DNA of 60,084 bases from Chrysochromulina tobinii (lineage: Eukaryota). The notes beneath the pieces are model-generated. The model ran no database searches, was not told the DNA's origin, and saw only the letters and a list, made by a program, of their open reading frames with translations. The stretch is taken from the NCBI GenBank assembly GCA_001275005.1, contig JWZX01003344.1:1-60084 (forward strand). Reading direction: 5' to 3'. Every line of letters starts with the position of its first letter. Position 1 is the first letter of the stretch. Below are positions 9,176-60,084 of this stretch, one piece after another. A program made the position numbers and the translations under genes.

Positions 9176-9444
9176 TGGCCCGCGTGGCGGGGTTTCGCGA
9201 GACGCCGTCATCGACGTTGGGCACACCCGAAAGCTTCGGCTCAAACCAGGTGGCGCTTCTCGACGAGGTGCCCGGCGCTCTCGCGCTCCTGGTGGCCGCG
9301 CTAGACAAGGCGGGTGCATCCCGTGCGGACGACCTCGGGCTCATTATCGCCGGTATTGCTGTGGCACGCGGTTCGAGCTACCGGCTGCTCCTCGAGGCGG
9401 GCACCGTGCCTTCGCTCTTGCGCCACCTGCCGCACAATGCATCC

Positions 9445-28573: not shown

Positions 28574-30513
28574 ATGGCCGATGATGAGGAGAAGTTGTGT
28601 CGCTACTGCTTCGACGGCGAGGACGAAGGGCCGCTTATCAGCCCGTGCAACTGCCGCGGCGACCAGAAATGGGTTCATCTCCAGTGCCTGCGCCGTTGGC
28701 AGCGGATGGTGCTCGTCTCGCAGCCAACGCACCCAGCATTCTACGAGCGCGACCCTCGGCACTATCGCTGCAACGTGTGCAAGGGACTATTCACGTGCGA
28801 GCCGCCGACGCGGCTCGAACTCATGGAATCGTTCACGGGGCCCGAGCTAGGCGCGCTCATGGCACCCGGCTGCATCATCGCGTCGCACGCCACCTTCTCG
28901 GCCGAGCTCATGTCCCAGATGCAAGGCATGCCGTCCTTCATGCGCGAGCACTCGCCGTACGCGCATTGGTGCGCAGGCGTCTTCCTCATCACCGAGGTTG
29001 AGCCACTCGACCCAACCCTCACGGTTCCCATCCACTCGCCCGGGGCGCTCGAGGCCGTGCGTGACCGTTTGGGAGACAACCTGATGATCTCGTTGCAAGG
29101 GCAGAGGCTGCGGCTCATGCCGGGCGGCGCGCTCACGGGTGTCGCGCCCGACGAGCTCGGCGAGAGCCTCGCGGCCCTCACGTACTCCGAGGGCATGCGC
29201 CTCACACTCGAGCGCACGCCGCCGCCGGGCTGCGGCGACGACCACGTGACGGCGATCAACTTGGCGCGACAGACGACACGGCCTATTGACGAAACGGCCT
29301 TCGTGCAGGCTCGTGATGCGGTGCTGGCGAGGCTGCCCGAGGCGTCGGCCGTGCGCGTCATGCATTACATCGGCGGTCCATGTTCACCCGACGAAGTCTC
29401 ACATTGCGTGGTGAGTGGCGGCACCGGCTGCGGCTCTCTGAGTACGACTGATTACGACTGAGTACGACTGAGTACGACTGAGTGCGACTGATTACGGCTG
29501 ATTACGGCTGAGTGCGACTGATTACGGCTGATTACGGCTGATTACAACTGATTACAACTGATTACAACTGATTACGGCTCTCTGATGGCGACTGAGCCGA
29601 AGTGCCACTGATTACGACTGAGTGCCACTGATTGCCACTGATTGCAGGTGAGCGGCGGCAATCGAGAGAGCTGCGGCTGGACGGTGCTCAAACATCTCGA
29701 TGAGGCCCTCGAGCTCGCTTGCAGGCGCGCGTTCGACGACGTGGTCGAAGGTCAGGGTGATGTGCGCTGCGGCCAGGCAGTGAAGCTGGTGGGGCTTCAA
29801 ACTCGCCACGAGCTCAATGGCGAGTGCGGTGTCGCTCTTTGCTACCAGCCGAGCGCGGGTCGCTGGGTCGTTCGCCTCAAGGATGGTCAAGGCAAGCAGC
29901 TCAAGCCAAGCAACCTCGAGGTAGCGCGCTCAGAGCGAACACGTCTTCGCCGCCGAATGCCCTCGAGGGCTACGGATGGTTGCTGAGTGCAGATTCGTTG
30001 GCTCGTCATTGCATGCTGAGTGCAGACTCGTTGGTCGTCATTGCAGGTGCTCGGCGACGGCGCGCCTGTGGTGCACTGCGTGTGGGGAGACGCGCAGTGG
30101 AGCCGCACGCAGCTGCTCGGCGAGATCGCTCGCGGGCACTGGGGGCTCTGCCACGCGTCGGTGGCCGAGATGCTCGCTCCTCCGACTGAGCGCTGGGCGG
30201 CTCTCGATGGACGTCTTGTCTTCGCTCCCGAGACAGAGATGATGGAGGATGTGCGCGCCCCGCACGCGTGCCGATCGAACCATGGATCACCTCCCCCCCC
30301 CATTCGACCCTCCCTGACCCCTCCCCCCTAACCGCCCACCCCCTGTGCGCCGCTCATCCGACGCGATGTGCGCAGTTCATCCGGCGCGGCGTGGCGGAGA
30401 TGGAGCGCGAGAGGGCGCTGCAGAGTCGCGCGGCCGATGCGTCCGCGTCCGCAGTCGAAGCGGCCGAGGACGCAGAGGCAGCCCGCGGCCGCGGAGGCAG
30501 CCGAAAATGCTGA
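28574..30513 (+). CDS. RING-CH (RINGv) protein fused to a DUF179/AlgH-like domain; exons 28574-29410, 29648-29920, 30047-30250, 30376-30513
   Basis: CRYC...LISPCNCRGDQKWVHLQCLRRWQ...CNVC is a C4HC3 RING-CH. YIGGP and WGDAQWSRTQLLGEIARGHW resemble DUF179 motifs. Three phase-0 GT-AG introns. Confidence 0.75.
29438..29645 (+). repeat. 10-nt satellite (GATTACGACT / GAGTACGACT, about 20 copies) in intron 29411-29647
   Basis: Directly visible tandem array. Confidence 0.9.
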
Positions 30514-30564
30514 CGCTGGCGAGACTCTGGCTGTCGAAGAGGATGGTGGCGAAGAGTAGGGCTA

Positions 30565-30697
30565 GGCGGACATCGAGGCGGACATCGAGGCGGAGATCGA
30601 GGCGGAGATCGAGCGGAGATCGAGGCGGAGATCGAGCGGAGATCGAGGCGGAAGTCGAGGCGGAGATCGAGGCGGAGATCGAGGCGGAGATCGAGGC
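30565..30697 (+). repeat. 12-nt tandem repeat (GCGGAGATCGAG) downstream of the RING-CH stop codon
   Basis: About 10 imperfect copies. Confidence 0.85.
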
Positions 30698-38800: not shown

Positions 38801-40798
38801 CGCCGCCGCCGCCGCCGCGTCGCGCGCCGGGCTTGAATGCCTCCTTGGCGGCGGCCGCCTCCTCCTTCTTCTTCGAATCGTTCTGCGCGAGCTGCTTGAG
38901 CTGATCGAATCTCGTGTGCACCTCTAGCAACGCCATGATGTCCGCCGAGAGCTCGTCCTTGTTCTTTTCGACGAAACCCTCGATCGTGTAGATCACCTCG
39001 CCCGCGTAGTGCGAGACGATGAACGTCTTGTCGGATGCCTTCTTAGGCTTCATGTACGCCTTGTACTTGGCGTTCTTCGCCTCTGAGCCAAAGGTCGAGT
39101 GGCAGTTCTCGAGCACCGACGAGTCTTTGCCCGAGCCGGTGGTGCACCCTTCGTCGAGAAGCCCGAGGATGCACAAGGGCCGCTTGGCGATCAGGTCGAT
39201 TACGTGCTGATTGTCCTCGTAAGAGACGAAGCTCCATTCGACCTCCTCCCTGACATACACCTCCTGCTCGAGCTTGAACACGTGCTCGATGAATAAGTTG
39301 TGCAGCGACTCGTTGGTGAAGTTGATGCACAGCTGCGGGAACGAGTTGCACGTGGCAAAGTTCTCAAAACCGAAGATGTCGAGCACGCCGGTGCAGTAGG
39401 CGGCGTTGAAAACTGAGATGTAGTCGTTGATAACTTGGACGCACCAGTCGAAGCAGAGGGAGTAGATGTGCATCACGAGCGAGTTGCGCGCGATGTTGGC
39501 GCGCAACGGGTCAAGCGGCGACTTGTACGTCGAGATCTTACCGCCGCCCATTGTCTTGAACGTGATCGCATCGAGGATCATCGTGGGCTCGACCTGCAGC
39601 TGCTCCGCGCACCGGCTCAGTAGCTTCGTGTCCTTGACCTCTGAGCCCTCCTTGCCCGCGTCGAACTTGATGTTGCCCAGGCTGAGGCAAGCTGCAAGCA
39701 TCACGTATAGCTCGGTACGCTGGTCATTCGAGAAGCCGAGCTTGAAGAGTGACTCATGACAGTCCGCAAACTCCTCCTCGTCGTTCCACGTGGTCACCTC
39801 GGCCACGGTGCCCTTCTGATTGAGAATGAAGTAGTTCTCCCACTTGGTCAATGCGACGCTCGGAAGGTCGCGGATCGGCTTGGGCGCCTTGGCCAGCATG
39901 TAAAAAATGTGGTAATTACGTTCGCCCTCGAGGTGCTGGCAGATGCGAGGCTTCTCGAGGAGGTAGACTGTTGTTACGGCACCCAGGATCACACCGTTGG
40001 ACGAGAATTGAATGTCGAAGTGCTTTCCAAAGCGCGACGAGTTGTTGTTGCGCACCGTCTTGGCGTTGCCGAAGCCTTCCATGATGGGGTTGGTCATCAT
40101 GAGGCGTGGCGCCACCTCATCGGCGACGCGTTGGCCCTTGATTTGCGAGGCCTGCGCAGCCAAAAGGTCAGAGCGTACTTTAGAGCGACAGCCAGAGCAT
40201 GAGAATGGGAGCGGCTAACCGGCGATGCGATCGGCGCGTGCACACCTCCGCAATGAAGGTGAGGCAAATCTTCATCGCCTCCGTCTTGCCGGCACCCGAT
40301 TCGCCCGAGATGAGGATCGACTGCGAGCGATTGTCACGCACCATCGTGTTGTACGTTTGGTCGACGAGGGCGTAAATGTGCGGCGGCAGGTGCGTGCGAG
40401 CGCCGCCCTTGTACTTGGCACGGATGCCCTTCCCGACGCAGCCAGTATTCTTGAACGGATTGACGGAGATGACGATATCACCAACATACGTGTACACGAG
40501 CTCCGCCTGCGCGGCGCGCATTCGTGGCAACATCGGCCGTCAGGGCGTGAGCGAGCACGGTGCGCTCATGTGGAGCACAGGAATTGGAGGATGTGGAGCG
40601 ACGATGAGCGACGGGCAAGCAGAGGAGGCAGGCAGTTCGCACCTTGAATCGTCGCTTCAAGTTGTCGAGGATAGAATCCTTGGTAAGTGTTGGCAGGGAG
40701 ATCATGTCGTTGTGACCAAAACCCGTAACCTTGGCGACGAATGTGGCTGGATCACCATCCTGCCCCGCCTTGAGCGTTCTGACCTCGAATCCTGGCAT
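35868..40798 (-). CDS. Unconventional myosin (motor, IQ motifs, two PH domains, FERM-like tail; ~1566 aa); exons 40798-40643, 40506-40246, 40151-35868
   Basis: GESGAGKTEA P-loop, GNAKTVRNNNSSRFGK switch I, DIFGFE switch II, HYIRCLKPN and IQ-like LQSFFRM/LQGFCK/LQRHAR. PH motifs EGWL and KEGYMRKR...WERRYCVL precede a FERM-like region. Confidence 0.92.
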
Positions 40799-41224
40799 GC
40801 CAGCGATGCTACGTAGTGCGGTACTGTCGCGTAGGCTGAGGATGGGTCGGTGAAAGTCGCTCGGAAGGTCGAGAGGCGTGAAGAACGGGATGACGGGCGC
40901 CAACCAATCGATCGGACCGACGCGTGAAGAGGCGGTTTCATCTCCTCTCCACGACGTCCTGCGACGTCTCCATAAACGCACCGTCCCGTTGATCGATTCA
41001 AGTTGTATTTGATCGCTACTATTGAGCTGGTGCATGACTCACGCAACTTTTGTGGATGATGGCGCAACTTTGACTGGACAAAGTTTCGAAACCGACTGAT
41101 CGATGTTTTGCGCACTCATACACTCGTGCGGAAAACGAGACGTCGTCGGAGACGTCGTGCTGTAACGCCGAGACAGAGAAGGCAGCCCCGCACGTATTTA
41201 GGTTGAGGTTCGCTGGACCTACCT

Positions 41225-41587
41225 ATGGAGCTCATCCAGTGGAAGGAGCTCGCTCCAATCTACACTTCGCAGTCGAAGGTTGTGCCCGGCGATGTCGGCA
41301 AGCCTGCACGGACGCATTACGTGCCCGACCCCATCAAGTGCCGTATCTCTTACGAGTGGCCTTTCAATCTTGAAGCACAGCCCGACCCTTCCAAAGACCA
41401 GGATCAATTCCCCTCGCCGCCCAAGAAAGTATTCGTGCCGCTCGTCAACCCCATCACGGGCAAATCAACGCCTCCATACAAGGCCAAGAATAGCGGCGGC
41501 GGTGGTGGGTCGCCGAACGGACCAGGGCTTGGCGTCGCGTCTTGGCTGCCTCCTGACCACCCCAAAGCTCTCGGCAAAATCTACTAA
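41225..41587 (+). CDS. Small Pro-rich hypothetical protein (120 aa)
   Basis: ATG-initiated ORF with coding-like composition in otherwise intergenic sequence. Confidence 0.55.
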   Translation: MELIQWKELAPIYTSQSKVVPGDVGKPARTHYVPDPIKCRISYEWPFNLEAQPDPSKDQDQFPSPPKKVFVPLVNPITGKSTPPYKAKNSGGGGGSPNGPGLGVASWLPPDHPKALGKIY

Positions 41588-42147
41588 GCGTCGCCTTTTG
41601 TGATGTGCTCCGCGTGTCGGGGGCACTGTGAATTCTGGAGCTGTTGCTTTTAGAGGATAGAGCGACGGCGCATTGTGGTATAGTCTTAGCCCGCTCAGCC
41701 CAGGGTGCGTTGAGACGTGTGATCTGAATCCGAGCGTGTCACTTTCACCTCCGACCCACCCTCATCCCTCAACCTACGCGCGATCCATCGCCGTTACTAC
41801 CAATCTTACTTGTTACTACGGCAGACCCAGACCCGGCAGAGAGGCAGTTGTATAGCCGTACTCGACGTACACAGACCGCCAGTTAACACCCGCGCAGGCA
41901 CACTCACACTGGAGCGACCCGACCCCCGCGCGACCGCAAAAGCGCATCGGAGGACGACGAGCCGTGACACACGCGCAGCCCCGCCAAATAATGTATCGTG
42001 CGTAGTTCCTTTCCACACGACAGTAAAGCCAGCCTATGGCGGCTTTTTAACGCATACGTCTGCAACTGCTATTATGAACACGCTCCGTTGTTTGCTGTTT
42101 GGCACCCGCCCGTGACGGCGCCTCCGTAATGTGAACACGCTGCATCG

Positions 42148-42889
42148 ATGGCCACTGGCGAGTCGAGCGACGCGCTCAGCAAGCCCTTCGTGATCGGCTC
42201 GATTGCGACGTGGCTCGGCAAGAAGGCCGAGGAGTCGCGCTCGCACGAGTGGACCATCTACCTGCGAGCGGCGAACCCGGAGGAGGACCTGTCTCTAATA
42301 GTCCGGAAAGTTGTCTTCGTGCTGCACCCAACGCTGCAGCCACCGACTCGGAGTGAGCGCTCCCAATCTCGCGCATTTTCCAATGCCCGAACGCCCGGCG
42401 CCCCCGACACGCTTACCGCGCGCGCGCGCTCGATTTGCTCCTCGCCTTTTCGCAGCGATCGAGACAGCGCCATTTGAGGTGACCGATCAGGGCTGGGGCG
42501 AGTTCGAGGTGACGTTGCAGGTCTACTTCCACGACTCGCGCGACAAGCCCATCGAGCTCTCGCACATGCTCAAGCTATACCCGCCCGGCGAGCAGGTCAA
42601 CATTGCCGGCAAGCCCGTCGTCGCCGAGCGGTACGACGAGTTTGTGTTCAACAGCCCGTCGGAGGGGCTGCGCCAACGGCTGCTTACGGAGGCTCCGCCA
42701 TCGATCAAGGGCTGGAAGCACTCGGCGAACGGCAAGTGGTTCACCGACTTCGAGGCGGACGCGCCAGTCGAGTCGCAGTCGCTCCAGCAGATCTATCAGG
42801 TCATCACCTCCGAGCTGCAGACGGCGTCCAAGCGGCGGAGACTGCTCGAGGACGAGCTCAAGCAGCTTCAAGGCCAGAATGGTCTGTGA
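42148..42889 (+). CDS. YEATS4: YEATS-domain protein (YAF9/GAS41-like); intron 42353-42455
   Basis: SHEWTIYLR, KVVFVLHPTLQPPTR|TIETAPFEVTDQGWGEFEV and VVAERYDEFVF, plus a C-terminal coiled coil. Confidence 0.9.
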
Positions 42890-43256
42890 TCGAGGCCTGA
42901 GCATATGATCTCTGTGAGAAAGTGATAGTAGGGGCGCTGTGCCTGTGAGCGGTTTACGATGAATTTACAATCACAACAGTGCTGTGTCGCCCCCTCGCCG
43001 CCCGCGCTGCGGAGGTGTGACCGCACGATTGAGGGTGACCGGTGTGCTGGGTAGTGGGTTTAAGGTGGATTTTGTCTAATGTCATAGAATCGTTTTGCGC
43101 CGTAGTATCCGGCGTATCCCGGTCGCGCGGGTCGCGCGGTCCCCACGCCCGGACGTTCGCGGAAGCCAAGCATTAATAAACCCATAACGTCGTGTCGCGT
43201 GGCTCATTACACGGCGTCGTCTGTGTGTCGTAGACCCCTGCGTGCCATACGATGTG

Positions 43257-44402
43257 TCACTCGTTCGCATCTAGGAGGCGCTCGCCACAGCGCGTGAGCA
43301 GCCGGCGGCACTGCTGTCGCGTCTCGCTCTCGAGCACGCGCCCAAAATGGAGGATCCCAAAGAAGAGGATGGGGCGCAGGATGATCGGCGAGCCTTCGGC
43401 GGCGGCGAACGAGAGTAGAAGCGCGCCCGCCCAGCGCTGCTCCTCAAAAGGCAATCCCCTATGCTGCACCCACGCCGCACGCACCGACGTAGCCACGCCC
43501 AGTGCCCCGGGGCATGCAAGGCCTACTAGAAGTCGATCGCACCAAGGGCGCCACCAGCGTCCGAATTCGCGGTGCGGGTGCAGCCGTAGGATCCGGTACA
43601 GCGGGCGGTGCGGCTCAAAGGGCAGCAGCGCACCGAGGACTACGAGCAGCAGCAGCGCCGTCATGGTCACCGCCCGCACGACGCGCTCGCTCTGCAGCCA
43701 TGCCGCCAACGGGGCGCGCTCCGTTCGGTAACGAAACCCGCACTGGTCGCACTGGTAAAATGAGCGCGGGTTGGCCGAGGCGGCACGCCACTCATTCAGG
43801 CATGCCGCGTGCACGTAGCGCACCGAGCCTCGGCACCGACACGGCGCGAGCAGCCGACCCGCTTCTTCACCACAGAAGCAAATGCGGCATACACGCTCCT
43901 CCTCAGGAATGAAATCCTCGGCCGGCGCGGCAGTCGCCGGCGGAGGTGGCTGGGTCGGCGCTGTTCGCTGGGCGCCGGCTGCCGCAGCTCGCGCGATGGC
44001 TCGTAGGGCCTCCGCGGCATCGTCGTCTGCCTGTGGCCGCGGGACAGCCTCGCCATCGCCGCCTGTGGTGGGCAAGAAACGCTCCCACGCGGCGGCCACC
44101 TGCTCGCGAGTCGGCAGCACGAGGCGACGCGGCGGGGCCATGCCGTTGGTGGTCGTCGCCGAGGGCAGCACGGCCGCAAGCACGACCACAGGTGCGGCGC
44201 GAAGGATCTCCAGTAGCTCGGCGTCTTCGAGCATGCGGCCCTTGTGCGCGATGTGGAGGCGCACGGCCGCGGCAGGCGCCGCTCCAATATCGACGAGTCG
44301 TTGCTTGAGCGCACGCACATCGGACGAGGCCGAGACGACGATGCTCGAGAGGAGCGTGCTGCGCACGTCCTTGACCTGCAGCGTGAAAGTGCCGTCGTCC
44401 AT
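43257..44402 (-). CDS. Ubiquitin-like domain + RING-CH + transmembrane protein (MARCH-like E3 ligase)
   Basis: N-terminal UBL-like segment (VRALKQRL...LHIAHKGRMLED), CRICFC...LLAPCRCRGSVRYVHAACLNEWR...CDQC, and C-terminal hydrophobic helices. Confidence 0.85.
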   Translation of the reverse strand: MDDGTFTLQVKDVRSTLLSSIVVSASSDVRALKQRLVDIGAAPAAAVRLHIAHKGRMLEDAELLEILRAAPVVVLAAVLPSATTTNGMAPPRRLVLPTREQVAAAWERFLPTTGGDGEAVPRPQADDDAAEALRAIARAAAAGAQRTAPTQPPPPATAAPAEDFIPEEERVCRICFCGEEAGRLLAPCRCRGSVRYVHAACLNEWRAASANPRSFYQCDQCGFRYRTERAPLAAWLQSERVVRAVTMTALLLLVVLGALLPFEPHRPLYRILRLHPHREFGRWWRPWCDRLLVGLACPGALGVATSVRAAWVQHRGLPFEEQRWAGALLLSFAAAEGSPIILRPILFFGILHFGRVLESETRQQCRRLLTRCGERLLDANE

Positions 44403-44590
44403 GGTTATGAATACAAGTTTCACTTTCTTCGTGTGAACACCGAAACCCCTACCAGGGTGAGAACGATCAACGCGACTGTGATACACTCGCCCGCAGGGGC
44501 AAGCAGGGGGTGGGCACTTCTCTCTATTCAGTTCTCTCTATCGTACGCAATAATCTCGCCGCCACCGAAATACTCCTGGAGTCTGAGACA

Positions 44591-47222
44591 CTACAGTACG
44601 TCGCCGCCAGTCCAATCGCTGCCGTGCGTGAGCAGTGTCGCGCCGTACGGCGTGGACCGCCCGTCGTCGTTGCCGTTGAACGAGTCGTAGTACGTGAAGG
44701 CGACGTCGTCGTCGGTGAGCGCGGGGCCGCCGGGCGGGTTGTCAGCGTTGTTGGTCACTCGGACGACTAGGCTCGTCGACGAGACGGGTGCGGGTAGCCC
44801 TGGACTCGCACACACGAGGCGCTGGGGGCCGCCCCCGCCTTCAGTGGCGAGCGTTGCGGGCACGAGCTCGAGGCCACCGAAGCGGCAGTGAAGCCCCGCC
44901 GCCGTGGGCACATCTGTGTGGCGTCCGTGGCCGAGGTCGCGGAAGCCGACGCCCCAGACGGTGACAGGCGTGCCGCCCTGCCGTGGACCGCCGCGCGGGT
45001 AGATGCGCGACACCGCCACGCCCGCATCTGTGTGGTATGCGAAGCGCACGCCGCTTGAAGTGAGGGCATGCATTTGGCCGTTGATGGTCACCTCGACCGT
45101 CCGCTCGTCATAAGTGCCGCCGAAGGCGTCGTCCACATACGACGAGGCATTCGGCGTTCGCTGCGGTGAATAGCAGCGCACATGTTCACGGTCGACGAGC
45201 GATGCCGGTACCGGCGACTCCCCGCCAAACTTGCAGAAGAGCCCGCCGACGTCGTCAAAGCCGGTGCCGCGCACGCGCACGAGGGTGCCTCCCTGCTCGG
45301 GCCCCCCCGGCGGCTCGAGGCGTGCGACGCTCAGCCCGATTTGGGTATCGTCGAGCTTGTAGTACGTGTAACCGCCGCCGAACTGGCGGGTGGGCAGGTA
45401 GTCCTGGCCGTTGAGGGTGAGCTCGACCTCGACGCGCTGCGAGCTGAGCGGCACCACATTGTCGGCGTGCAGCCAGTGCGCTGGCGAGACACATCGGATG
45501 CTTTGCTCCTCGTCGATGGTCGCGTTGACTTCCTCGTTGAGAGGGCCGAAGCGGCATCGGACGTCCCCGAGGGACGAGAATCGCAGGCCGCGCGCCACAA
45601 GGGACGTGTTGCCCGTGAGCGGCCCACCGGACGGCTCGATCCGGTGGAGCTTCCACACCGTGTCGTCATAGTACCGAAACGGAAGGCCGCCGTCAGTGAA
45701 GTCGAACCCGTTCACCGTCACCTCGACATTGACGTCTCGCCCGTCGAAGGAGCTCTCATACTGCGGCGAGAGCTGCGTGTCGAGCGGTGGCGGCAGCGGC
45801 GGCACGCGGCAGCTGACGGCGCCCCAGCCGGCGCCGCACGTGCGTTGGCCACGGCAGTCCGTGAGCGACGCATTGACGACCTCATGCACCACGTGTTGCC
45901 GCTCGAAGCCCAACACGCCGACGGTACGCGTGTGTGTGAAGCGGCAGAGGACTCCGTGAGCGTCGCCTCCGAGGTCCACGAGCAGCCGTGCGTCGGTCAG
46001 GTACACCGTGAGCACGGTCCCGCCGTGGATCGGGCCGCCGAGCGGGTGCAGCCGCGACGTATTGAACGCGGGCGGCGCGTAGTACGTGTACGGCACGCCG
46101 GAAGACGTGAGCGTACCTGTGGGGAGGAGAGGGCGCCGTAGTGAGCACTTGCATGCAGCTGGCCAGGCTCCAAGGGGAGCCGTATTGAGCACTTGCATGC
46201 AGCTGGCCAGGCTTCAAGGGGAGCCGTATTGAGCACTTGCATGCAGCTGGCCAGGCTCCAAGGGGAGCCGTATTGAGCACTTGCATGCAGCTGGCCAGGC
46301 TCCAAGGGGAGCCGTATTGAGCACTTGCATGCAGCTGGCCAGGCTTCAAGGGGAGCGTACCAACGGTGTCATAGCCGTTGAACGTGAGCTCCAGAGGCAT
46401 GGGGTGCAGCACCGACGCATTGGCGCCCACGCCGCCGGGCCACGTCAGGTCGGTCGGCGCGATGCAGCGTGCGCCGGCCTTGTCGCGACTGTCGCCCATG
46501 GCCCACAGGTATGCATGCACCATGTCGTTCTCGCCGAACTTGCACTTGAGGCCCTGCAGGCGCACGCCCATGGCCGTGCCCGACGAGAGGTCGCGCAGCG
46601 CGTGGCCGCGCACGAGCAACGGCGTCGCGCCCGCAGCCGGCCCACCCGCGGGCGTGATGTGCGAGACGGCGACGTACCGCATGTCGTAGTACGTAAACTG
46701 CAAACCGCTGCCGGTGAAGGTCACGCCGTTCATCGACACCTCGAGCGGCACCGTCACGTGCGTCTCCTCCTGCCCGCGCACGCACGTCGGAGAGGTGCAT
46801 CCGGGTGACGCGCACTCGATCGTGGTCTCATTCGCCAACAGAGCCTGGACCTCGTCCTCACCGAAGCGACACTTGACGTCGCCCAGGTCTTGGAAGGCGA
46901 TGCCCGTCACCGTTACCGCCGTGCCGCCGGTGAACGGCCCGCCGAGCGGAAAGAGCTGCCGTACGTGGCAGGCGGCAATGCTGTGCCCTCCCGTGCTGCC
47001 GTCCAAGTGGTGCTCACCCGTGCTGCCGACAAAGTACGGCCGAGGGATGTCCGGTGGCGGTGTTGCAGGTGGCGCTGTGGGCGGCAGTGATGGTGGCAGT
47101 GCAGGCGGCAGGTCTGGTGGCAGCCTCGGTGGCAAGGAAGGCGAGGTGATGCTTCCGCTGACCGAGGCGACGACGAGCGCGAGGGCGACGGATGAGAGCA
47201 GCTCTTGTCGCCAAGCCGCCAT
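44591..47222 (-). CDS. Secreted or surface protein with tandem IPT/TIG domains (~795 aa); intron 46117-46360
   Basis: Signal-like N-terminus and about 6 repeats of PxGGPxxGGTxVxVxGxxF...CRFG...C...VEVTxNG...FxYY. Confidence 0.85.
46143..46356 (+). repeat. 44-nt minisatellite (GAGCACTTGCATGCAGCTGGCCAGGCTCCAAGGGGAGCCGTATT, about 5 copies) inside the IPT/TIG intron
   Basis: Copies start at 46143, 46187, 46231, 46275 and 46319 and are near-identical. Confidence 0.95.
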
Positions 47223-47322
47223 TGGCGAATAGTTCACAGTTCACTTTTACGACCTCCCTCAACTTTCAATAACTTGAATTCATGAACGCACCAGCGTGAA
47301 CGTTCTGGGATTTGTACGTGTA

Positions 47323-47604
47323 ATGTCGTCGCGTCGCGGCGCTCTGGCAGCGAAGTGTGGCGCCAAGCTCGGCCTGCAGCACTTTGTGATGCGGAGCGAA
47401 GGCCGCAAGCTCTACCGCGATGTGTTGCGTGCGCTCAAAGGCGTCGATGCCGACACCGCTGCCGGGGTGAAGCAGGCAGCGCGAGAGCGGTTTGCGGAGC
47501 ACACCGACGAGACCAACTTGGAACGGCTGCGCACGCTTCTAGTGGACGGCCGGCATTCGCTCAACGAGATGAAGCAGTTCATGGTCACCGCCGTTGTGCG
47601 ATGA
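47323..47604 (+). CDS. LYR-motif mitochondrial protein (LYRM2-like)
   Basis: LQHFVMRSEGRKLYRDVLRAL...ARERF, 93 aa. Confidence 0.8.
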   Translation: MSSRRGALAAKCGAKLGLQHFVMRSEGRKLYRDVLRALKGVDADTAAGVKQAARERFAEHTDETNLERLRTLLVDGRHSLNEMKQFMVTAVVR

Positions 47605-47920
47605 CGCAGCGTGACTAGGAAGTAGGCACCTAGTGTTCGAGCTATCGATGTAGGATGCAGTATTAGCAGACTGATGATGGTTCCTTAGCATAGAAACAGA
47701 AGCGGGTTCAAGGAAACACGTGTTCGTCCTTGCACACACACGACACCATCACACATGCAACTCGCGTCTGTGCGTATGCGCGCACCGTCGAGCTAACGAG
47801 CACACACATTGCATTGGGATATGATGCACGGCAGCGTGCACAGGCCAAAGCCCAAGCGCCGCTCGCCACGGTGGCGGACGGCGCCGGGCCGCTGCCGCCC
47901 CTGCCATCCTCTTTGCCATC

Positions 47921-50209
47921 CTAGAAGTTGCGCGAGAAGGCGCGGATCTCGCTCATGAGCGTGGGGATCGAGAGCGCAAAGTGCGCAAAGGGCGCTCCTT
48001 GCGGGTAGGCGGTCTTCACGAGGTCGAGGAAGCGTGTATAATAGAGGAGGAGCTGGGTCAGTACCTGCTTGAGAATGTCCTGGCCGAGGTGGAAGTTGGG
48101 GAAGGACTTCATCACCTCGCGGTTGACCGTCTCGATGCCCTGCTTCCACGTGTCGTAAAAGGAGCGGATGAGGTGCTCCATCCCGCCCACGTCGACGCGA
48201 GACCGATCCGCCTGCCCACCCGTGATCAGCAACGGCTCCGTCGTCTTGATGTAGTTGATGAGGGCGCCGTAGTCGACGGCGAGGCACTCCTCGACGAAGA
48301 GAGCCTTGACGCTGTCGAGGAGCTGCTCGAAGCGTGCGGACTCGTCGCCGCGCGCGCCGCGCTCGTTGAACGTGGATGCGATGAGCTCGTAGCTGTTCAC
48401 GAGGAAAGCGGATTGGCTCTTGCGTGTGGCGAGGAGCCCGGCAAGACGCTCCTGCAGAAGCCGCTCGACCTCGACGCGCAGCGCGCGGTGGATCGCCGCC
48501 ATCTGCGGCCCATACTGCGGCGGGTTGAGCTTACGGAGCGACGAGGCGAGCTCGGCGTACCTGATGAGGGAGGCCATCAGAGGTCATCAGAGGCCATCAG
48601 AGGTCATCAGAGGTCATCAGAGGTCATCAGAGGCCATCAGAGGTCATCCGAGGTCATCAGAGTTCATCAGAGGTCATCAGAGGTCGTCAGAGATCATCAG
48701 AGGTCTTCAGAGGTCATCAGCGGGCAGCTCGGCGTACCGGCGCGCGATGTAATGGGGATGGACTTCGGGTGGGGCTTTGGGCGCCACCGTCGCGAGCGAG
48801 GCGACGTGCGCCTCCATGATCTGCTTGAAGCGTGACCATACGAGAGCCTGCCCCTGGTGGAAGAAGTTGGAGAGCAGCGGCAGCTGCGTCGCCGAGAGGG
48901 TCTCAGTCAGGCGAGGCATGAGCTCGAGCACAAGCACGCATGCGATCGCATCCCATGTGGAGATGAGGTAATGCTCCAGGTGCTCCATGCAGTGGAAGAG
49001 GCCCTTGCCGAAGATCTGCTCGAAGGCGTCCGCGTCGCCGAAGAATTCGAGCATGAACGAGTGCTCGCTCCTCGCCATGTCGATCAGCAACATCGAGTAC
49101 GAGCGGAAGACCGCCTCATAGAAAATGCCGCCCTCCCCGCTGCTGCTGCTGCCCGGCACGCCGCCCTGCTGCAACACTGCAGGGATGAGGGGCGGATCGC
49201 GCACCTGCTCCAGGATATTGATCCGCTCGCCGAGCTTGTACGCCTGGTCGCCGCGCGCGGTCGCGGGCTTGGGGCCGCCGGTGCCTAATGCGGATGAGAG
49301 CCCTCCGAAGAAAGACGAGACGGAGGCGGTCGAGAGGGACGGTCCGGCGGCATTCCACTCCTCCGCACCAAGCAGGTCGGACTTGGTGGCGGGCTCGGTG
49401 CGCGCGCGCGAGAGCTCGGCGAGGTATCCCTTCACCTTGACCAGGTAGATGGCGGACATGGTCGTCGTGTACACCTCCTTGACCTCGAGTGCCGTCTCGG
49501 GTGCGTGCTCTAACAGGAAGTGGTACAGCCCCTTGTATTTGAGGAGGACCGACTGCTGCAGGATCTGGATGTTGGTCATCTTCTTGCGCAGCATGCCCAC
49601 GCGCTCCAGCAAGAACTCGCGGATCTTCTGCACCGACTTGGTGCGCAGCTTCTCGAGCTCGGGCGCCATGTCCATGCACGCCGACGTCATCTTGGTCGAC
49701 TCTTGCTTGGAGAAGGTGACCTTCTTGTTGAGCTCGAGGACGTACGCGAGATAGGTTTCGTTGACGTCGGCGTCGCAGATGTTGGAGATCAGGTCGGGCG
49801 TCACCACGATCTGCTGGATGAAGGACGAGAGCTCCGCCTCCGCCGCCTTGCGGTTGCGCAGCTTGACGTTCATTGCGAGCGACTCGTCCTGCAGGTACTT
49901 GATCTGCGCTGAGATGGAGGAGAGGTCGCCCTGGAAGCCGCGCAGCATCGACTCCATCGAGTCGAGCACAGTGTCGCACTGCCGAATTTGCGTGTGCAGG
50001 CCCGCGAGCGACTCGCTCTCGCAGATGTAGTCCTGAATCGAGTCGCGCTCGACGCTGCGCAGGGCGGACTCGACCTCGAGCGCGTACTGGCGCAGGTCGG
50101 TGCCCTTGGAGAGTGCCTCCTGCACCGCTGTGTCCGCGCGGAACTCGTCAATGTCGAACTCGTCTTCGAGGTCCTCCACGTCGAGATCTTTCTCAGTGGA
50201 GCGCGACAT
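47921..50209 (-). CDS. VPS52: Vacuolar protein sorting 52 (GARP/EARP subunit); intron 48561-48737
   Basis: VQEALSKGTDLRQYA, LHTQIRQCDTVLDSMESMLRGFQGDL, PELEKLR, PHYIARR|YAE and LTQLLLYYTRF match VPS52. Confidence 0.92.
48575..48720 (+). repeat. 10-nt satellite (CATCAGAGGT, about 14 copies) in the VPS52 intron
   Basis: Directly visible tandem array. Confidence 0.95.
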
Positions 50210-50374
50210 GTTGTCGCCTAGCACAAAGTTGAAGACCGTGCTTTCACGTTCACAGTTGACTTTTTCCATCGATTTTTTGAAGCTGACTGGAATGACTTAT
50301 TCCTGCCGGTCTTCCGCTAAGGCTCACAACGACGATGTCACTGACAAGGCCCGCTTCTGGACCCCCGGGGATGA

Positions 50375-51217
50375 TCAAGCAAACGGCTGGCCCACCAGCC
50401 GGGCGAATTCGTCGGGCTTCTCTGCATGCACCCAGTGGCCGGCCTCGAGCCACGCCGTCTGCGGCTCGGCGCCCGGGAATAAACGATCGAAGGCCTCGCG
50501 AGCGCCCGCCGCTGTGCAGTAGGGTGACCGGCGGCCGGCGATGAGGCGCGCAGGCAGCGTGGCGGGGGCTGGCGGCAGGTGCGCAGGCCAGCCCGCCAGC
50601 ACGCCCGTCCTGGCGGCCGCGATGAGCCCATGCAAGTTGAGTCGGAATCGTCGCTCCTCGGGTACCAGGTTTTGCAGCAGGAAGGCGCGGATGCCTGCCT
50701 CGGCAACGCCAGCCTCGCGCAACGCGGCGTCCGCGTCGCCGCGGGTTCCGAGGACGGCCTCGGGGAGCGCACCCATCGCCTCCATGATCGTCAAATTTGC
50801 CCTCCAGCCCTCGTGAGCCATGCTGTATTCGATGGGCGCGATGTCGGCGACGATGAGCTGCTCTACCCTTGCTGGATGGGCCAGCGCGGCGGCCATCACC
50901 ACTTTGCCGCCGAGTGAATGGCCGCACAGCACAGCACGCTCGGCCCCGAGGCTGTCGAGCAGCTCGACTATGTCCTCTGCCATCGCTTCAGCGCTCGCGT
51001 CATCATCCCACGGGCTGGCTCCATGATTGCGCAGGTCAGCAAGCACAACCGAACGCGTTGCGTTGAGCTTGCGCGAGAGCGTGTTGAAGTTGGAGCTCGA
51101 GCCAAAGAGGCCGTGCAGCACCACCAGCGGAGCCGCGTCGAGCGAGGGATGCTGCGCTGGGATCACTCGGCGGTGCAGGTGAACGTGGCGCCGAAGGACG
51201 AGGAGTCGTCCCGCCAT
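50375..51217 (-). CDS. Alpha/beta hydrolase, ABHD11/YbfF-like esterase
   Basis: LHGLFGSSSNF, DLRNHGAS, nucleophile elbow GHSLGG and AGHWVHAEKP. The N-terminus is Arg-rich and transit-peptide-like. Confidence 0.9.
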   Translation of the reverse strand: MAGRLLVLRRHVHLHRRVIPAQHPSLDAAPLVVLHGLFGSSSNFNTLSRKLNATRSVVLADLRNHGASPWDDDASAEAMAEDIVELLDSLGAERAVLCGHSLGGKVVMAAALAHPARVEQLIVADIAPIEYSMAHEGWRANLTIMEAMGALPEAVLGTRGDADAALREAGVAEAGIRAFLLQNLVPEERRFRLNLHGLIAAARTGVLAGWPAHLPPAPATLPARLIAGRRSPYCTAAGAREAFDRLFPGAEPQTAWLEAGHWVHAEKPDEFARLVGQPFA

Positions 51218-51349
51218 GCGAAAGGGACACAGTGTTTGAGGAGACCTGTGAATGGGCTGTTAATAATCAGAAGCCTACTCGGAATCTTCGTTTCGAAAAA
51301 ATGCACGTCGGAACGATGTGCGCTGACTGAAAGCCTGATTCTGAGCACT

Positions 51350-53379: not shown

Positions 53380-54590
53380 ACCACGGCGTCCGAGTGAAGA
53401 AAAGACATGCCGCTGCGCAGTGCCGACATGGCGTCCAAGTGAAGATACGCCGCGGAGTGCCGACATGAGCTGAGGGCAAGACACGGGAGCATGCGTGTGA
53501 CGAAACCGGGGGGCACGCGGACGGCGGGAGCACACGGGAGCATGCGAGCCGAAGGCGGCGCGTGTGCCGCATGCTCTGAGCCGCAGGGGGGGAGGAGGGA
53601 GCTGATGAGGGTCGCAATCGGCATGCTCTCAGCTGCAGCAGGGGGAGGAAGGAGCTGATGAGGGTCGCAATCGGCATGCTCTCAGCCGCAGGGGGGGAGG
53701 AGGGAGCTAATGGACACGAGCCAGAACATGCTGCATGCGTGCTCGCCTTTAAGTGTATGAGAATGTTGGTGAGGATACGTGGATACGTGTCCACGTCATC
53801 GTACCCGGCACTTCGTACGCATGCACGAGCATGTGGACACGGCTGCGGCAGGGAGGCGGGTAGCATTTGCAAGTCGGGCTCGTCGTTGCGACTTGCATGT
53901 GCATGGTCGGGGCGTCTAGGGGCGTCCCCTGTCCAGTGTCATCTGTGGCGTGTGGGTGGCGCTGGCCGGGGCGGGGGGGCACGGGCAGGAGGGGAGTTGG
54001 AGTATGAGGTTCATTAATACGAGTCCGATTTAATCCATTTCGAGCATGTTTTTAGGTTTAATTAAATTAATTAGATATGTGGATAAAACCTCATAAATTA
54101 ACTACATACTTTCAGATGAATCAAATGGAAGAGGGAAGTTCGAAGCATAGTGACGATCGATCGTGGAATCTGGAGATCCGCCTAATACTCAAGTTAACAA
54201 ACCGCAAATAACCGCCGTAACCAGAGCCGCCAAAACAGCTGGCGTGGGACCTGGGTTTCCGCTGAGTTTCAGTTTGACGGAGAGCGGCCGTGAAACTGAA
54301 AGCGGCTGAGCTTTTCACCGCGCAGCCGACAGTGTCACCACCCACACTGACACCACGCTGGACTTCGCCGCGCTCTCATTGATAGGTCCGTCTAAAGTCT
54401 CAAGCATGATGTCATGTCGTGTGACTTTAAGTCATGATTACAATCATGATCGCCACATGATGAGCGCCTCAGATCCCTCTGGCAACAGCGCAGTGACGAG
54501 TGAGAACACAGTATACAGAGTACACGCACCGCGCATGATCCACAAATGTGCAACGAGCTTCACAATTGAGCTGTAATGGCCGCGGGCCGA

Positions 54591-54632
54591 TCCGTCAAGT
54601 TCCGTCAAGTTCCGTCAAGTTCCGTCAAGTTC
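54591..54632 (+). repeat. 10-nt tandem repeat (TCCGTCAAGT x4)
   Basis: Directly visible. Confidence 0.85.
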
Positions 54633-54658
54633 CAAGGGCAACCGTCTCAGAACGCCGC

Positions 54659-55355
54659 TCACTCCTTCTTCTCTTCCAATCCGTCGCCACACTTGATCGG
54701 CAGGACGGGCGACACAGCCGTCCGCGAAGCGCATATGCCCAGTACGGCGCCCTCGCAGCACGTGGCGATCAGCAGCTTGACGCGGCGCGTCTTGCGCTGC
54801 GCGAGCGAGGTCATCAGCATGCAATCAGCTTCCATAGATGGCAATCAGCATGCACCACGCATCTATGCGCTTAAATCTTGCGCTGCACGAGGAGAGAGAT
54901 TCCCAATAGTTCACACTCAGTGGCGCGATCAGTTTGAAGCATCCAGAGTCGCAGTCAGTCGCAATCAGTCGCAATCAGTCGCAATCAGTATGAAGCAACC
55001 ACAGAGTCGCAATCAGTCGCAATCAGTCGCCCATCGCACCTGCACGAGAGAGAGCGATTCCCAATAATTGAGCATCGCGTGGATCTCACGCAGGGCGCGG
55101 TTCGTCGCCTCGAGATGCGACGGGATGTACCAATAATCCTACAGCAATGCAATGAGGGGGGCATCAGCATGAGGGAGGGCATCAGCATCTAATGAGGGAG
55201 GCCATCAGAGCTCAGCAGCGCGTTAGGAGGATAAAGCGATGACAATCAAGTGCAATCAAGTGCAGCCGAGTGCAATCAAGTGCAATCACCTGGAGCGCGA
55301 GGAGGACGGAAGCGACGGCGATACTCGCAGGGATCCAATTGCCGAGCGCGATCAC
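54659..55355 (-). CDS. Three small exons (55355-55290, 55138-55040, 54796-54659) encoding a TM helix plus helical tail, possibly SLATT-like; they splice in frame onto the GH38 gene
   Basis: Phase-0 GT-AG junctions give VIALGNWIPASIAVASVLLALQ|DYWYIPSHLEATNRALREIHAMLNYWESLSLVQ|RKTRRVKLLIATCCEGAVLG...*. Confidence 0.55.
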
Positions 55356-55559
55356 CTGTGGGGAGAGGGGGGCGCCGTGGTGAGCCCTTGCATGCGTGCA
55401 GGCGAGACTCGCAGGGATCCGAGTGCCGAGCGCTGTGCCGAGCGCGATGTACCCCGAGCATGCAACGAGGGAGGCCATCAGCATGCAATGAGGGAGGCCA
55501 TCAGCATGCAATGAGGGAGGCCATCAGCATGCGATGGGAGGCTAATCAAGCGGGCTTAC

Positions 55560-58500
55560 CGCCGTCTGGTAGCTCACACTCCACCGAGCGCGCTCGCACT
55601 CGTCGGACTGCTCATCAGGCGAGAGGGGCGCCGTGGCGGGCGCCGAGTTGGGCGCCGTGGTGGGCGTCCCCTTGGCGCACTCGCCCCGTAGAACGACAAG
55701 GGGCGCTTGCATTCCGAAGATGCGTGCGGTGAGGCTCATCCGATGCCTCGTGGACAGGTGGCCCCAGACGAACCAAATCTTGAGATTGGACGGGCCAGAG
55801 TCGATTGCAGGTCTCATCAGCCCACGGCCGTCGTCCTGCAATCAAGGGCAATCAAGGGAGCTCACACCTGCCCCAGCGAGCGATGAAGGAGGATCTCGAG
55901 TGTGCCAATCAAGGGCAATCAAGGGCAATCAAGGGAGATCACACCTGCCCCAGCGAGCGATGAAGGAGGATCTCGAGACCGCCGTCGCCCACCCTCGCAG
56001 CGCCAACGGAGCGATCGAAGAGCAGCGTCAGTTGCTGCGGGGCGCCGTGGTGAGCGCCGTGGTGGGCGCCCGTGCCCCCTGTGCCGTTGCCAGCCTGCCG
56101 CAGAGCTGCGCCAACGGCTGTGGGGAAGAAGGCGGCAGCGGGGAAGGGAGTACGGTCCATACCCGGGGGTGGCCCTCGTCGGCGCCACGCTAAGCCATCG
56201 TGCGTGTGGAAGCTTGTCCCTAATTTGGAAGCCATCGTGCTTGTCACGGCGGAGAGCAGCCCGCTCTGCACGCGCAAGACCACCTCTTGATTGCGCGCGG
56301 CGTACACTGTCACGTCCATCTCCACCGCGGCCTCATGCTCGCTGTCCCTAATTTGGAAGTCGTCCGCCCCGCCTCTCGGCGCCGTCGTGGGCACCCCGCC
56401 GCTCGCGTGATGCACTCGGGTGGTCACTGTGAAGTGGCCCGGGCTCGTGCTCCGTACCTGCTCGAAGAGGCGCGCAAGGAGGGAGGTCATTAGCATGCAA
56501 TGAGGGAGGTCATCAGCATGCAATGAGGGCCCGTGCTCCGTACCTGCTCGAAGAGGCGCGTACGCTCCAACGACACCTGCCGCGCCACGTCACTCAGCGC
56601 CATCGGCGCCTTGTCGAGCAGCCTCATGATGTAGGCGCCGGACTTGTCTGTGCTGTAGGCTAGGAGTGAGGTATGCACCCGCAGGGCGAGCTTCGGCTCA
56701 CCTGCATGCAATGAGGGAGGCCATCAGCATGCATTGAGGGAGGCAATCAGTGAGTTTCGGCTCACCAGCACAGCCGAAGGACAGCTCACGCATCAGGCCC
56801 GAGCTGCCATCGAGGTGCACGTCGGTGCACCCGCCATGCAGAACCGGCCGCGACGGGCCTGCAACCGAGCCGCCCCAGACTTCCATACGAGGCAGCCTGC
56901 CTGCAACCGAGGGTTGTGCGGCTGCTGCAGACGAGGATTGAGAGGAGGCAGTGGTAGTCGTGGTGGCGACTGAGGCTGCAGCTCGTGCTGGCGACACGAA
57001 ATACGTCGCGAGGCCGAGGCCGGGCACACAGGCACGGAAGGCCACCTGTACCTCCGAGGGATCGGTGCTCGGACTTCCTAATTTGGAGGCCACGCGCACT
57101 AATGGATCGGTGCTCGGCATGGCGCCATGCCCGACGTTCCTAATTTGGACGAGCTCGGCCACGTCCGACGGCTCGGCCAGACGTGCAGATGGAATCTCGC
57201 GCCCGAGATCGTCGAGCACGGACGCGTCGGCGCACTCGACAGCGCCGTCCTGAGCGCATGCGCGGCTCATCGCCACCAGCGCGCAGCGAGGTGTTGGGAG
57301 CGGGTTGAACAGGATCAGAGGCACCGTGCTCGCGGGTGGTGCGTGGTCGACGTGGTGCGACACTGAAGGCAGCCGCCTTTCGACGAACTCGGTGGGGAAT
57401 TCTTGCAGTGGAGCGCCCGCGAGCAACATTGCAGCCGCGGTGGCAGCCAGCTTGCGTGCCTTCGAGATGACGTCACGCAGTGTCTTCTCATAGTCTGCCA
57501 CCACCTGCGTGCAAGGCATGTGATGAGGGAGGCAATCTGCATGCGATGAGGGAGGCAATCAGCATGCAATGAGGGAGGTCATCCGCATGCAATGAGAGAG
57601 GTCATCCGCATGCACTCAGGGAGGCGCTCCTGCCACCACCTGGGTGCGAGATGTGCCCGTGATCGCGTCGTGGTGCTGTAGTAACGCCACAGCCCGGCGA
57701 CATTGCGTGAGCGTCTCGAACGCGGCATGCAAGTGCTCGTCACGGCGCTCCTCCCCCTCGAGAGAGGCGAGCCAACGGACCACGCCGTGATGAGCACTTG
57801 CATGCGCGAGGACGACGAGCCAGTTGGCCGCGTGGAGCGCCGCCTCGGCGCGCCGCAGCGCCGTCTTGAGCGCCGGCCGAGTGCCGTAGAAGCCCGTCCA
57901 GTACGAGTGGTCATCGTCGGCGTAGGGGAGCAGATCTCCAGAGTACGAGATCGTGGGGAGCGCGGCCTTCTCAAAGTACGCCGCGGCAAAGTAGCGTGAG
58001 GGCGTTGAGAAGAGGACACGCAACTGCTCGCCTGGGTGCGAGGCATGCAATGAGGGAGGCCATCAGCATGCTATGAGGGAGGCCATCAGCATGCAATGAG
58101 GGAGGCCATTAGCATGCAATGAGGGAGGCCATTAGCATGCAATGAGGGAGGCCATCAGCATGCAATCTGCAATGATGAGGGAGGCCATCAGCATGCTATG
58201 CGCATCGGCTCACCCGGGTGCCTTTCAGCCCCTTGCATGTGCCCGTTGACCCACGCTGCAAGCCGCGACCAAGCAGAGGCAGCTCCAAGGGCATTCTTCC
58301 ATCGGAAGTCGTCGCCGAGGGGAATCATGACGTGGCGCGTTCGGTATGCTTGCGCGCGCTTCGTGGCAAACGCGATGAACTCGCGCGCTTTCTGCTCGAG
58401 CTCCACTTGCGGCAGGGAGGCTGCGCATGCAGTGAGGGAGGCCATCAGCATGCAATGAGGGAGGCAATCAGCATGCAATGAGGGAGGCTCACCCGGCGTG

Positions 58501-59117
58501 CGACGCGACTCAAAGTCAAAGCCTCGGGGAGAGGCGTAGTGGGTGTGAAGCACGTGGGTGTGAATGCCTTGAGTGCCCCCGAGGCCGCCGAGCTGCGGTG
58601 CGCCCGCCTTCCACACGAACTCAAGTTCTCGAAACGATCGCCAGCGCTCCTTGAGCCTGTAGTGAATCCGGTTGATGACGAGAGCTCGCAATCCCATACG
58701 AGCCATGAGAGCTGCGCTTGCGGCGGAGTGCCCAAACGGATCAATTTGCCACCCAACCTGCGGCCGCACGCCAAAGGTCGACTGTAACCATGCGTGCCCC
58801 TCTGTCATGGACTCAAGGATGCCGCCAACCGAGGTCAGAGCTTCGTCGTGCTGCACCCAGCCACCACCAGCAAACTCGAGTCGACCAGAGGCGACGAGCG
58901 CACGCACGATTGCCTGCCGCCGTACGCTCAGCTCGGCATAGTAGCGCGCGAAGAAGCACGTCTCCGCCCATGAAAACGTAAAGTTGCCATCTGCCTCCAG
59001 TGCTCCGATGACGCCGGAAAGGATAGGCTTCACCTCCATGCCGTAGTAGCGATCGGCTGTCTGCAACCAACCAGGGTCCGTATGGCTGTGCGGCACCAGG
59101 TGAATCGTCAAAGTCAT
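55560..59117 (-). CDS. Glycoside hydrolase family 38 alpha-mannosidase; exons 59117-58493, 58420-58214, 58031-57640, 57504-56766, 56701-56544, 56457-55945, 55835-55560; both ends uncertain
   Basis: HLVPHSHTDPGW (Zn site), GWQIDPFGHS (nucleophile Asp), PLGDDF, YWTGFY, QHHDAITGT, SGAYI and LEILLHRSLGQ|DDGRGL. All six introns are GT-AG and keep frame. Confidence 0.9.
58043..58200 (+). repeat. 23-nt satellite (GCATGCAATGAGGGAGGCCATCA) family; other arrays at about 55146-55210, 55458-55545, 56478-56529, 56704-56750, 57516-57624 and 58424-58488
   Basis: The same unit fills most introns of the GH38 locus, and a partial copy marks the 3' end of the VPS52 intron (48562-48580). Confidence 0.95.
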
Positions 59118-59584
59118 GAGGCCACGAGAGCTCGGCACGGCCAGCCAAGGGCCCTTCGACGTGGCGCACACCCGACGACCAAGGCCGCTCTCTTCTGGGC
59201 GTCCCCGCCATTAGCCTGTGAACCAGTTTGTGAACCAGAAGAACGCTCGGTTTCCGGTTCTCGTCTTCAGCAAGACGACAGACGCAGGGAGGCTCACGAA
59301 GATCCTGTCAAAAATGAAACATGTGTCTTTCATAGACCAATCTTCACACCGGAAACAGATGAGGTCCTTGTCGCAGTCGACCCTCTCTTCACCGCTGTCC
59401 GCTCCGTTCGACGCACAAAACGGCAATGCCACCACAGCTCTCGAATCCGTTTGGGCCACCGACGGACACAAATCCATTCGGACCGCCAGCGAAAGCAGCG
59501 CCACCACCGCCATCAGCCGCGGCGCAGGCGGGCGAAAAGATCTTCGGCGGCATCTCTTCTGGATTCAGTGCTCTCTCAAGAAGC

Positions 59585-59938
59585 ATGGACTCGCTGCCTA
59601 AGGCGCCGCCGCCACCAGAGGATGGTGAATCGCCGCCTAAGATGAGCACCGCGCGAATGTTGAAACTGGCGGCCGAGGAGGCCATGAAAGAGCAGCAGAA
59701 GCAGCCGCTGCAGCCGCAGCAGCCGCAGCAGCCGCAGCAGCCGCAGCAGCAGCCGCAGCAGCCGACGCCGACAGATGTGCCCGAGATTGCATTCCTCGAG
59801 GGTTTGGTCACGCGCATGCAACGCTGCGAGAAGGAGGGACAGCTCGAGCTCGCCGTGTCCATTTACAGGACGGCCCTGCCCGTCTTCGCCTCCGCAGACA
59901 CGGCCGCCCGGGCCATCAGTAAGGCCCATGGTCAGGAG
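59585..59938 (+). CDS. First exon of a gene running off the right edge (Pro/Gln-rich N-terminus, then helical segment)
   Basis: The ATG at 59585 opens 118 codons (MDSLPKAPPP...QPQQPQQ...AISKAHGQE) ending at a GAG|GTGAGT donor. Confidence 0.65.
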
Positions 59939-60023
59939 GTGAGTGGACCAATCTTGCGCAAGATCCATGCGGTGAGTCGACTTGCCTCCCTGATTGCACT
60001 TGATTGCCCCTTGCGAGAATTCA

Positions 60024-60084
60024 GCCTCACCCTCACCCTCACCATCACCCTCACCCTCACCCTCCACCCTCCACCCCTCCACCC
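60024..60084 (+). repeat. Intronic CCCTCA / CCCTCCA simple repeat
   Basis: Directly visible after the donor at 59939. Confidence 0.8.

Follow-up and report, generated by a model that had tools for sequence, protein, structure and literature searches.

Introns that combine exon copies with satellite filler in the GH38 gene of Chrysochromulina tobinii

The introns of Daphnia pulex that were born during repair of staggered double-strand breaks (Li et al. 2014, PMC4202315) carry, in the portion of that study cited here, a repeat of the adjacent exon at the opposite intron end, and they were later lengthened by nested insertions. Both features recur in the introns of a GH38 alpha-mannosidase gene of C. 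tobinii. The Daphnia repeats measure 4-12 bp and the introns are AT-rich, polymorphic and, in the same portion, of mostly unknown source. In the GH38 region, by contrast, repeats reach 34 nt and the filler is a recognisable, abundant motif; all alleles seen carry the introns, and failed events are visible inside exons.

Introners offer further comparisons. Classes 4/5 and 6/8/10 of Polarella glacialis and Symbiodinium (bioRxiv 10.1101/2020.10.14.339549) likewise draw the donor from the duplication and the acceptor from the insert, which can lie in either orientation. As far as the excerpt used here describes them, they have a fixed 3-8-nt duplication and defined element ends, whereas the duplications here span 9-34 nt and the filler is a tandem array. 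The Introners of Chrysochromulina sp. (Gozashti et al. 2022, PMC9860276) also belong to a haptophyte and, in the sections cited, show target duplication and no terminal inverted repeats. However, their duplication is 4 bp long and the element brings the 5' splice site and co-opts a 3' site, which is the opposite of most introns described here.

Interstitial telomeric repeats at breaks (PMC7215372) are likewise tandem repeats put in during repair; microhomology accompanies them, as does target duplication in some cases. Their unit is the telomere hexamer, however, plain duplication accounts for 3 of 66 loci, and the part of the paper cited here reports no intron creation. Finally, tandem duplication of AGGT (review, PMC3443670, in part) gives a duplicated proto-splice site resembling the boundaries of introns B, C and E below, but there the entire intron is exon-derived and here most of it is foreign filler. 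The listings of a search of mostly open-access literature gave no description of the present intron type; supplements to the Introner papers may include related families.

The GH38 gene and its introns

We analysed a 60,084-nucleotide stretch of C. tobinii DNA (the window), to which all coordinates refer unless another locus is named. Its G+C content ranges from about 0.56 to 0.73; the genome of C. tobin has 63.4% according to the part of its description cited here (PMC4580454). Very long uninterrupted ORFs, measured stop to stop, occupy 943-5916 (1657 aa), 9046-14667 (1873 aa) and 35868-40214 (1448 aa). Much of the window is therefore intron-poor, so that the GH38 gene stands out as a hot spot.

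55560..59117, minus strand: GH38 alpha-mannosidase gene, exons 1-7 (gene model, Pfam and orthologs; start codon position approximate)

The product contains PF01074 and PF09261. In a quick tree it clusters with four metagenomic proteins and one Prymnesium parvum protein (support 98), which makes the organism a haptophyte. The genomic orthologs L006 and L008 are sister to this group (support 100). Searches for longer relatives with two of the exons found none closer than 66% and 52%. We compared the window with a second assembly of the same organism (L003), a second strain (L002), RNA contigs from runs X14, X15, X16 and X19, and a DNA run (X1) that may be the source sample; one RNA run is a freshwater sample.

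The last three exons of our first model, below 55356, were dropped: they match no GH38 ortholog, and L003 has exons that do. The window departs from L001 and L003 at 55457, within a 23-mer array, and L003 continues to ortholog-matching exons, supplying from its position 11205 onward the true 3' exons of the gene, which lie outside the window. From this sequence comparison, the window is probably misjoined at 55457 and the three predicted exons below probably belong to another gene. RNA depth is zero at 55001-55167 in three runs, which, as absence of cover, is a weak argument alone. Since these exons were rejected from GH38, predicted introns H and I were assigned to another gene; both stayed among the 21 and 22 introns counted below. 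Introns A-G of the GH38 gene are as follows.

58421..58492, minus strand: intron A, 72 nt, pure 23-mer satellite; spliced in X19
58032..58213, minus strand: intron B, 182 nt, 21-nt junction repeat with 4 mismatches; spliced in X15 and X19
57505..57639, minus strand: intron C, 135 nt, 18-nt junction repeat (1 mismatch) around CAG|GT, 23-mer filler; spliced in X14 and X19
56702..56765, minus strand: intron D, 64 nt, 19-nt junction repeat (2 mismatches); spliced in X14 and X15
56458..56543, minus strand: intron E, 86 nt, 34-nt junction repeat (1 mismatch); spliced in X14
55836..55944, minus strand: intron F, 109 nt, 10-mer satellite; X19 splices from the first donor
55457..55559, minus strand: intron G, 5' part (continuation in L003; X19 contig)

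Introns A-F were predicted in our gene model, and RNA contigs remove exactly these: C, D and E are spliced out in X14, B and D in X15, and A, B, C and F in X19. The X19 contig also extends 11 nt beyond the intron G donor and then departs from the window. Intron G begins with an 11-nt copy (1 mismatch) of its true next exon, known from L003. A further intron of 72 nt, G2, is predicted in frame at L003 11601-11672 and has a 17-nt junction repeat; we predict its splicing because removal restores a motif common to orthologs.

An earlier reading of this DNA, made from its sequence only, had described five direct-repeat pairs with satellite between the copies. All five are present at exactly the positions it gave, and 23-nt satellite is found between copies. 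Four pairs are exact, at 56446-56474/56532-56560 (29 nt), 56692-56702/56756-56766, 57495-57507/57630-57642 and 55862-55900/55939-55977 (39 nt), and one, at 58026-58039/58208-58221, has 2 mismatches in 14. In introns B, C and E a duplicated AG|GT site provides the boundaries. In D, G and the introns at 48561 and 46117 (listed below), AG instead comes from the filler. Intron D opens with a 14-nt copy of the next exon and its satellite supplies the acceptor AG. Two of the mismatches in intron B fall on the AG and GT: the intron copies have these letters, and the exon copies have synonymous changes at third codon positions instead, which suggests that the ancestral target at this site was CAG|GT.

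The 39-nt pair of intron F is correctly located, but it is not the boundary repeat for which it had been taken. It consists of exon end, donor and satellite duplicated within the intron. Each copy is of the donor type, and splicing in the RNA starts from the first. The internal copy is a secondary duplication in an existing intron and no scar of its birth. Intron A behaves similarly. The window allele has no junction repeat, and exon copies lie inside intron A in other alleles: 10 proteins contain an in-frame copy of the upstream exon, and 4 contain a repeated exon end with donor and satellite. Altogether, exon copies inside existing introns were seen in 14 of 24 intron A proteins, in intron F and in two L003 introns. 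Because copies also enter existing introns, a repeat alone does not date the birth of an intron, and the earlier assumption that each repeat marks one is not supported.

Copy number at introns E and F is assembly-dependent, with 3 copies in L001 and L003 against 2 in the window. In L002 at least 2 copies are present at each, and its longer intron E contains a nested partial copy. Nested events differ between strains.

Exon copies, fillers and insertions inside exons

Junction repeats were scored, with the splice dinucleotides excluded, in 21 introns drawn from the window and L003. A score of at least 6 was reached by 10 of the 21; among 420 mismatched donor/acceptor pairs, 9 reached it (binomial p about 6e-12). 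The introns of sister orthologs L006 and L008 gave 0 of 4; the controls comprised these four and the mismatched pairs. Repeat lengths are 9, 12, 13, 14, 17, 18, 19, 20, 21 and 34 nt, mostly 3' of the junction. In the usual design, the first 8-17 nt of the next exon open the intron and the final YAG comes from the filler.

When exon copies at any intron position were counted (score of at least 10), 12 of 22 introns were positive compared with 8 of 462 controls. Either test was passed by 16 of the 22, of which 11 are predictions; six had no exon copy by both tests, including intron A in the window allele. Introns outside GH38 were mostly chosen via satellite arrays, and for that reason the rates do not stand for the whole genome. 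Among the nine RNA-confirmed introns, six have junction repeats of at least 9 nt, one is of the internal type and two have none. For introns defined by RNA alone in 40300-51300, two of three have junction repeats (9 and 13 nt). Introns outside the GH38 gene include the following.

48561..48737, minus strand: intron of another gene, 13-nt junction repeat, 10-mer satellite; RNA joint in X14, X16 and X19
46117..46360, minus strand: intron of another gene, 9-nt junction repeat, 44-mer array with the 3'-end motif at its end; RNA joint in X14
29411..29647, plus strand: predicted intron (from sequence), 14-nt junction repeat with 1 mismatch, 10-mer satellite
42353..42455, plus strand: counter-example, an RNA-defined intron without exon copy or satellite

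In the predicted intron at 54797-55039, the upstream exon end and the downstream exon start are both copied, and the two copies directly adjoin, as at a spliced junction.

Several filler units occur, of 10, 23 and 44 nt, besides a 3'-end motif; the words CTGAT, TTGAT or CTCAC in them resemble branch points. Bins with filler motifs have a summed DNA depth of about 1200-9800 (about 1200-7900 for the 23-mer) compared with about 40 on unique exon, a ratio that is not a copy number. The full 23-mer occurs 17 times in 54501-60084, all on one strand, and is absent from 1-54500 and from L003 1-6036; it is an abundant motif clustered locally in the GH38 region. We did not find the satellite in viral_contigs, in genome_contigs or at 69 other loci. 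Filler 3' ends are conserved, and a filler ends in YAG only where the target has no AG, which selection also predicts. A terminal AG is missing from the fillers in introns B, C and E and in the antisense exonic insertions.

Other satellites lie at 14609-14876 (37 nt), 30564-30697 (12 nt) and 53569-53712 (53 nt). The first sits in a predicted intron that has no exon copies; the latter two arrays could not be placed in introns and do not enter the counts. A telomere-like hexamer array occupies a predicted intron of the upstream gene (window 60021-60084, L003 5990-6097). The Emiliania genome paper reportedly describes introns with 10-11-bp repeats.

Repeat-plus-motif structures are also found in exons. 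In the coding sequence of the window exons and L003 we counted 7 exact repeats of at least 12 nt at 20-120-nt spacing, compared with a mean of 0.045 in 200 codon-order shuffles. Several of these pairs flank motifs; three long ORFs taken as a control have 0-1 motif matches each. The intron 3'-end motif has 8 matches in the window against 0 in 100 shuffles. Examples in the GH38 gene are given below.

57059..57117, minus strand: in-frame exonic insertion, 14-nt direct repeat at 45-nt spacing; retained in X14 contig 56756-57192
56857..56911, minus strand: in-frame exonic 13-nt direct repeat at 42-nt spacing, unspliced despite AG|GC; retained in X14
56192..56240, minus strand: exonic 12-nt direct repeat at 37-nt spacing, with the four-copy exonic motif; retained in X14
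55595..55683, minus strand: in-frame exonic insertion, 8-nt repeat at 81-nt spacing, filled with the sense intron 3'-end motif; retained in X19
57725..57805, no strand assigned: intron 3'-end motif, present in exon 3 as an inverted pair; retained in RNA

The filler at 57059..57117 includes a motif that occurs four times in exons. We presume this four-copy motif to be an intron motif; it was not found in any intron examined. The region at 56192..56240 is 18 nt longer in L002. The inverted pair at 57725-57805 looks like a replacement rather than an insertion, because the segment is about equal in length to that of P0001. In L003, a 20-nt pair at 51-nt spacing flanks an antisense 23-mer in frame, as read from the DNA. 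An in-frame exonic array at L003 11291-11357 has a unit like the intron satellite of L003 5222-5323.

Exonic repeat-plus-motif insertions are often antisense, mostly in frame, and kept in mRNA where RNA covers them. These versions are the main new evidence, beyond the earlier reading, that insertion does not depend on splicing. Since the same insertions persist unspliced in exons and mRNA, insertion likely comes before splicing.

Distribution and age of the introns

Introns B-G are missing from genomic L006 and L008, each of which has two introns of its own, and B-G are accordingly lineage-specific. Long branches separate this gene from the orthologs whose DNA is visible, so the comparison shows lineage specificity only. 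One L006/L008 intron sits in the same loop as intron A, at a different position and phase. At L006 1238-1497 and L008 647-966, where the sister orthologs have two introns, one of them begins with GC, and its filler is a short repeated motif of its own.

Intron C is absent in 24 of 26 non-self loci spanning its site and intron F in 8 of 8, although some of these loci may be transcripts. Two of the loci spanning the intron C site carry in-frame insertions of 11-15 residues nearby. Four closer orthologs (1197-1290 residues, full-length single ORFs on 7-23-kb contigs) are probably intron-less, given that the gene calls of that collection read through introns. P0142 (72%) reads straight across site A. 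In P0148 (66% to exon 1), read-through near site A shows a low-complexity insert flanked by two exon-like peptides that resemble each other, a hint of this process in another haptophyte.

Within the species the picture differs from that expected. Intron positions had been predicted to be absent from relatives or polymorphic among strains; the absence from orthologs was found, and the polymorphism was not. Introns A-F are all present in L002, where B is shorter by 46 nt and E longer by 168 nt. Among 24 conspecific proteins with exon 1, 23 enter intron A, one jumps to satellite and none reaches exon 2; intron B is entered by 8 of 8 conspecific read-through proteins. Neither L002 nor the 30 cluster members listed out of 72 showed an intron-less allele; A and B are the best sampled, and the introns look fixed within the species.

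Repeat copies differ at 14 of 177 positions (about 8%, a lower bound), compared with 30 of 2628 exon bases (1.1%) between L002 and the window. The copies are thus mostly older than the strain split, and 'recent' in the sense of polymorphic does not describe these introns. The broader proposal of intron gain through variable-length duplication and satellite filler, distinct from Introners with their fixed duplication, is supported as a lineage-specific process.

Possible origins and their meaning

We propose that repair of a break, or template switching, duplicates the target and fills the gap from nearby intron motifs, creating introns without a classical transposon, and we put the probability of this reading at roughly 0.5. 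Staggered-break repair or a template switch would duplicate 9-34 nt of target, and the gap would be filled by copying motifs out of neighbouring introns. The filler would contribute the branch-point-like words and, in many cases, the terminal YAG. If the target of a sense insertion starts with G|GT, or spans AG|GT, the insertion could then be precisely removed and so become an intron; antisense or unspliceable insertions would persist only where they keep the frame within tolerant loops. Later on, the satellite would grow and shrink, and the same process would add secondary exon copies to existing introns.

Duplication and filling is supported because repeats exceed chance, their lengths vary, there are no terminal inverted repeats, and exonic versions are retained in mRNA. 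Terminal inverted repeats scored 3-7 in the 22 introns, against a null with mean 4.9 and 95th percentile 7. By inspection, the part shared between introns is the tandem unit; 5' ends are locus-specific, and lengths range over 64-483 nt. The introns lack the fixed duplication and terminal repeats of DNA-transposon Introners and the end-to-end similarity with consistent boundaries of Introners of any type, and share with the latter absence from orthologs and precise splicing. Because no intron-absent allele was found, birth in a single step lacks an empty site. A narrower version, in which introns beget introns locally as resident satellites (DNA or intron RNA of the same gene) template repair of nearby breaks and no transposon takes part, is plausible but less likely than not.

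An unlikely competitor is a non-autonomous retro-type element, or excised intron RNA, inserted by target-primed reverse transcription, which would leave variable duplications, 5'-ragged fillers and a fixed YAG end. Variable duplication length, conserved filler 3' ends and the antisense insertions all agree with it, and introners derived from non-LTR elements are known (PMC12130899, in the portion cited). It does not account for the lack of a terminal AG on the fillers of B, C, E and the antisense exonic insertions, for several unrelated units (10, 23 and 44 nt), or for the concentration of the 23-mer in one gene; moreover, no master element was seen in the loci compared.

We consider it improbable that the introns are older and of other origin, with exon copies arising secondarily by slippage in unstable satellites and sometimes replacing a splice site. 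Real secondary copies do exist at F, in two L003 introns and in intron A alleles, satellite length varies between strains, and the introns are fixed across all alleles seen. Yet slippage would have to replace the donor exactly with the first bases of the next exon in at least 10 introns, and it leaves the repeat-plus-motif insertions within exon interiors unexplained.

Tandem duplication of a longer AGGT-containing exon segment, its interior later overwritten by satellite, has in vivo support as a mechanism (PMC3443670, in part) and fits B, C and E, whose copies flank AG|GT on both sides. We think it quite improbable for this gene: the exon-homologous part is at most 34 nt of introns of 64-483 nt, with no whole-intron exon homology encountered, the 9-34-nt copies are nearly perfect with abrupt ends, and D, G and the introns at 48561 and 46117 draw AG from filler and have no duplicated AG. 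That the duplications are short-read assembly artefacts at satellites, as the assembly-dependent copy number at E and F and the apparent misjoin at 55457 might suggest, is hardly credible given mismatches between copies, X1 DNA contigs (depth about 40) that run from satellite into exon at either end of B and of C and show no differences, the same pairs with their own variants in the second strain, and precise removal of the introns in RNA.

For most newly gained introns the source is unknown; in Daphnia, as the cited portion of PMC4202315 has it, the repair footprint is evident and the inserted DNA is mostly without identifiable origin. In the GH38 gene of C. tobinii, footprint and filler source are both legible. 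One gene holds the successes, spliced and in sense orientation, beside the failures, which are in frame, often antisense and kept in mRNA. The order of insertion followed by selection for splicing becomes directly testable with one genome and population data. On the practical side, intron satellites misjoin short-read assemblies and corrupt gene models.

If resident satellites do template repair, the patch would be a ready-made splicing cassette, with branch-point-like words and a 3' splice site. The 2025 Introner survey removed satellite-driven families, according to the part cited here (PMC12130899), and a local satellite-templated route would be invisible to surveys that discard them. Such a route could explain a large share of the introns in this haptophyte lineage.
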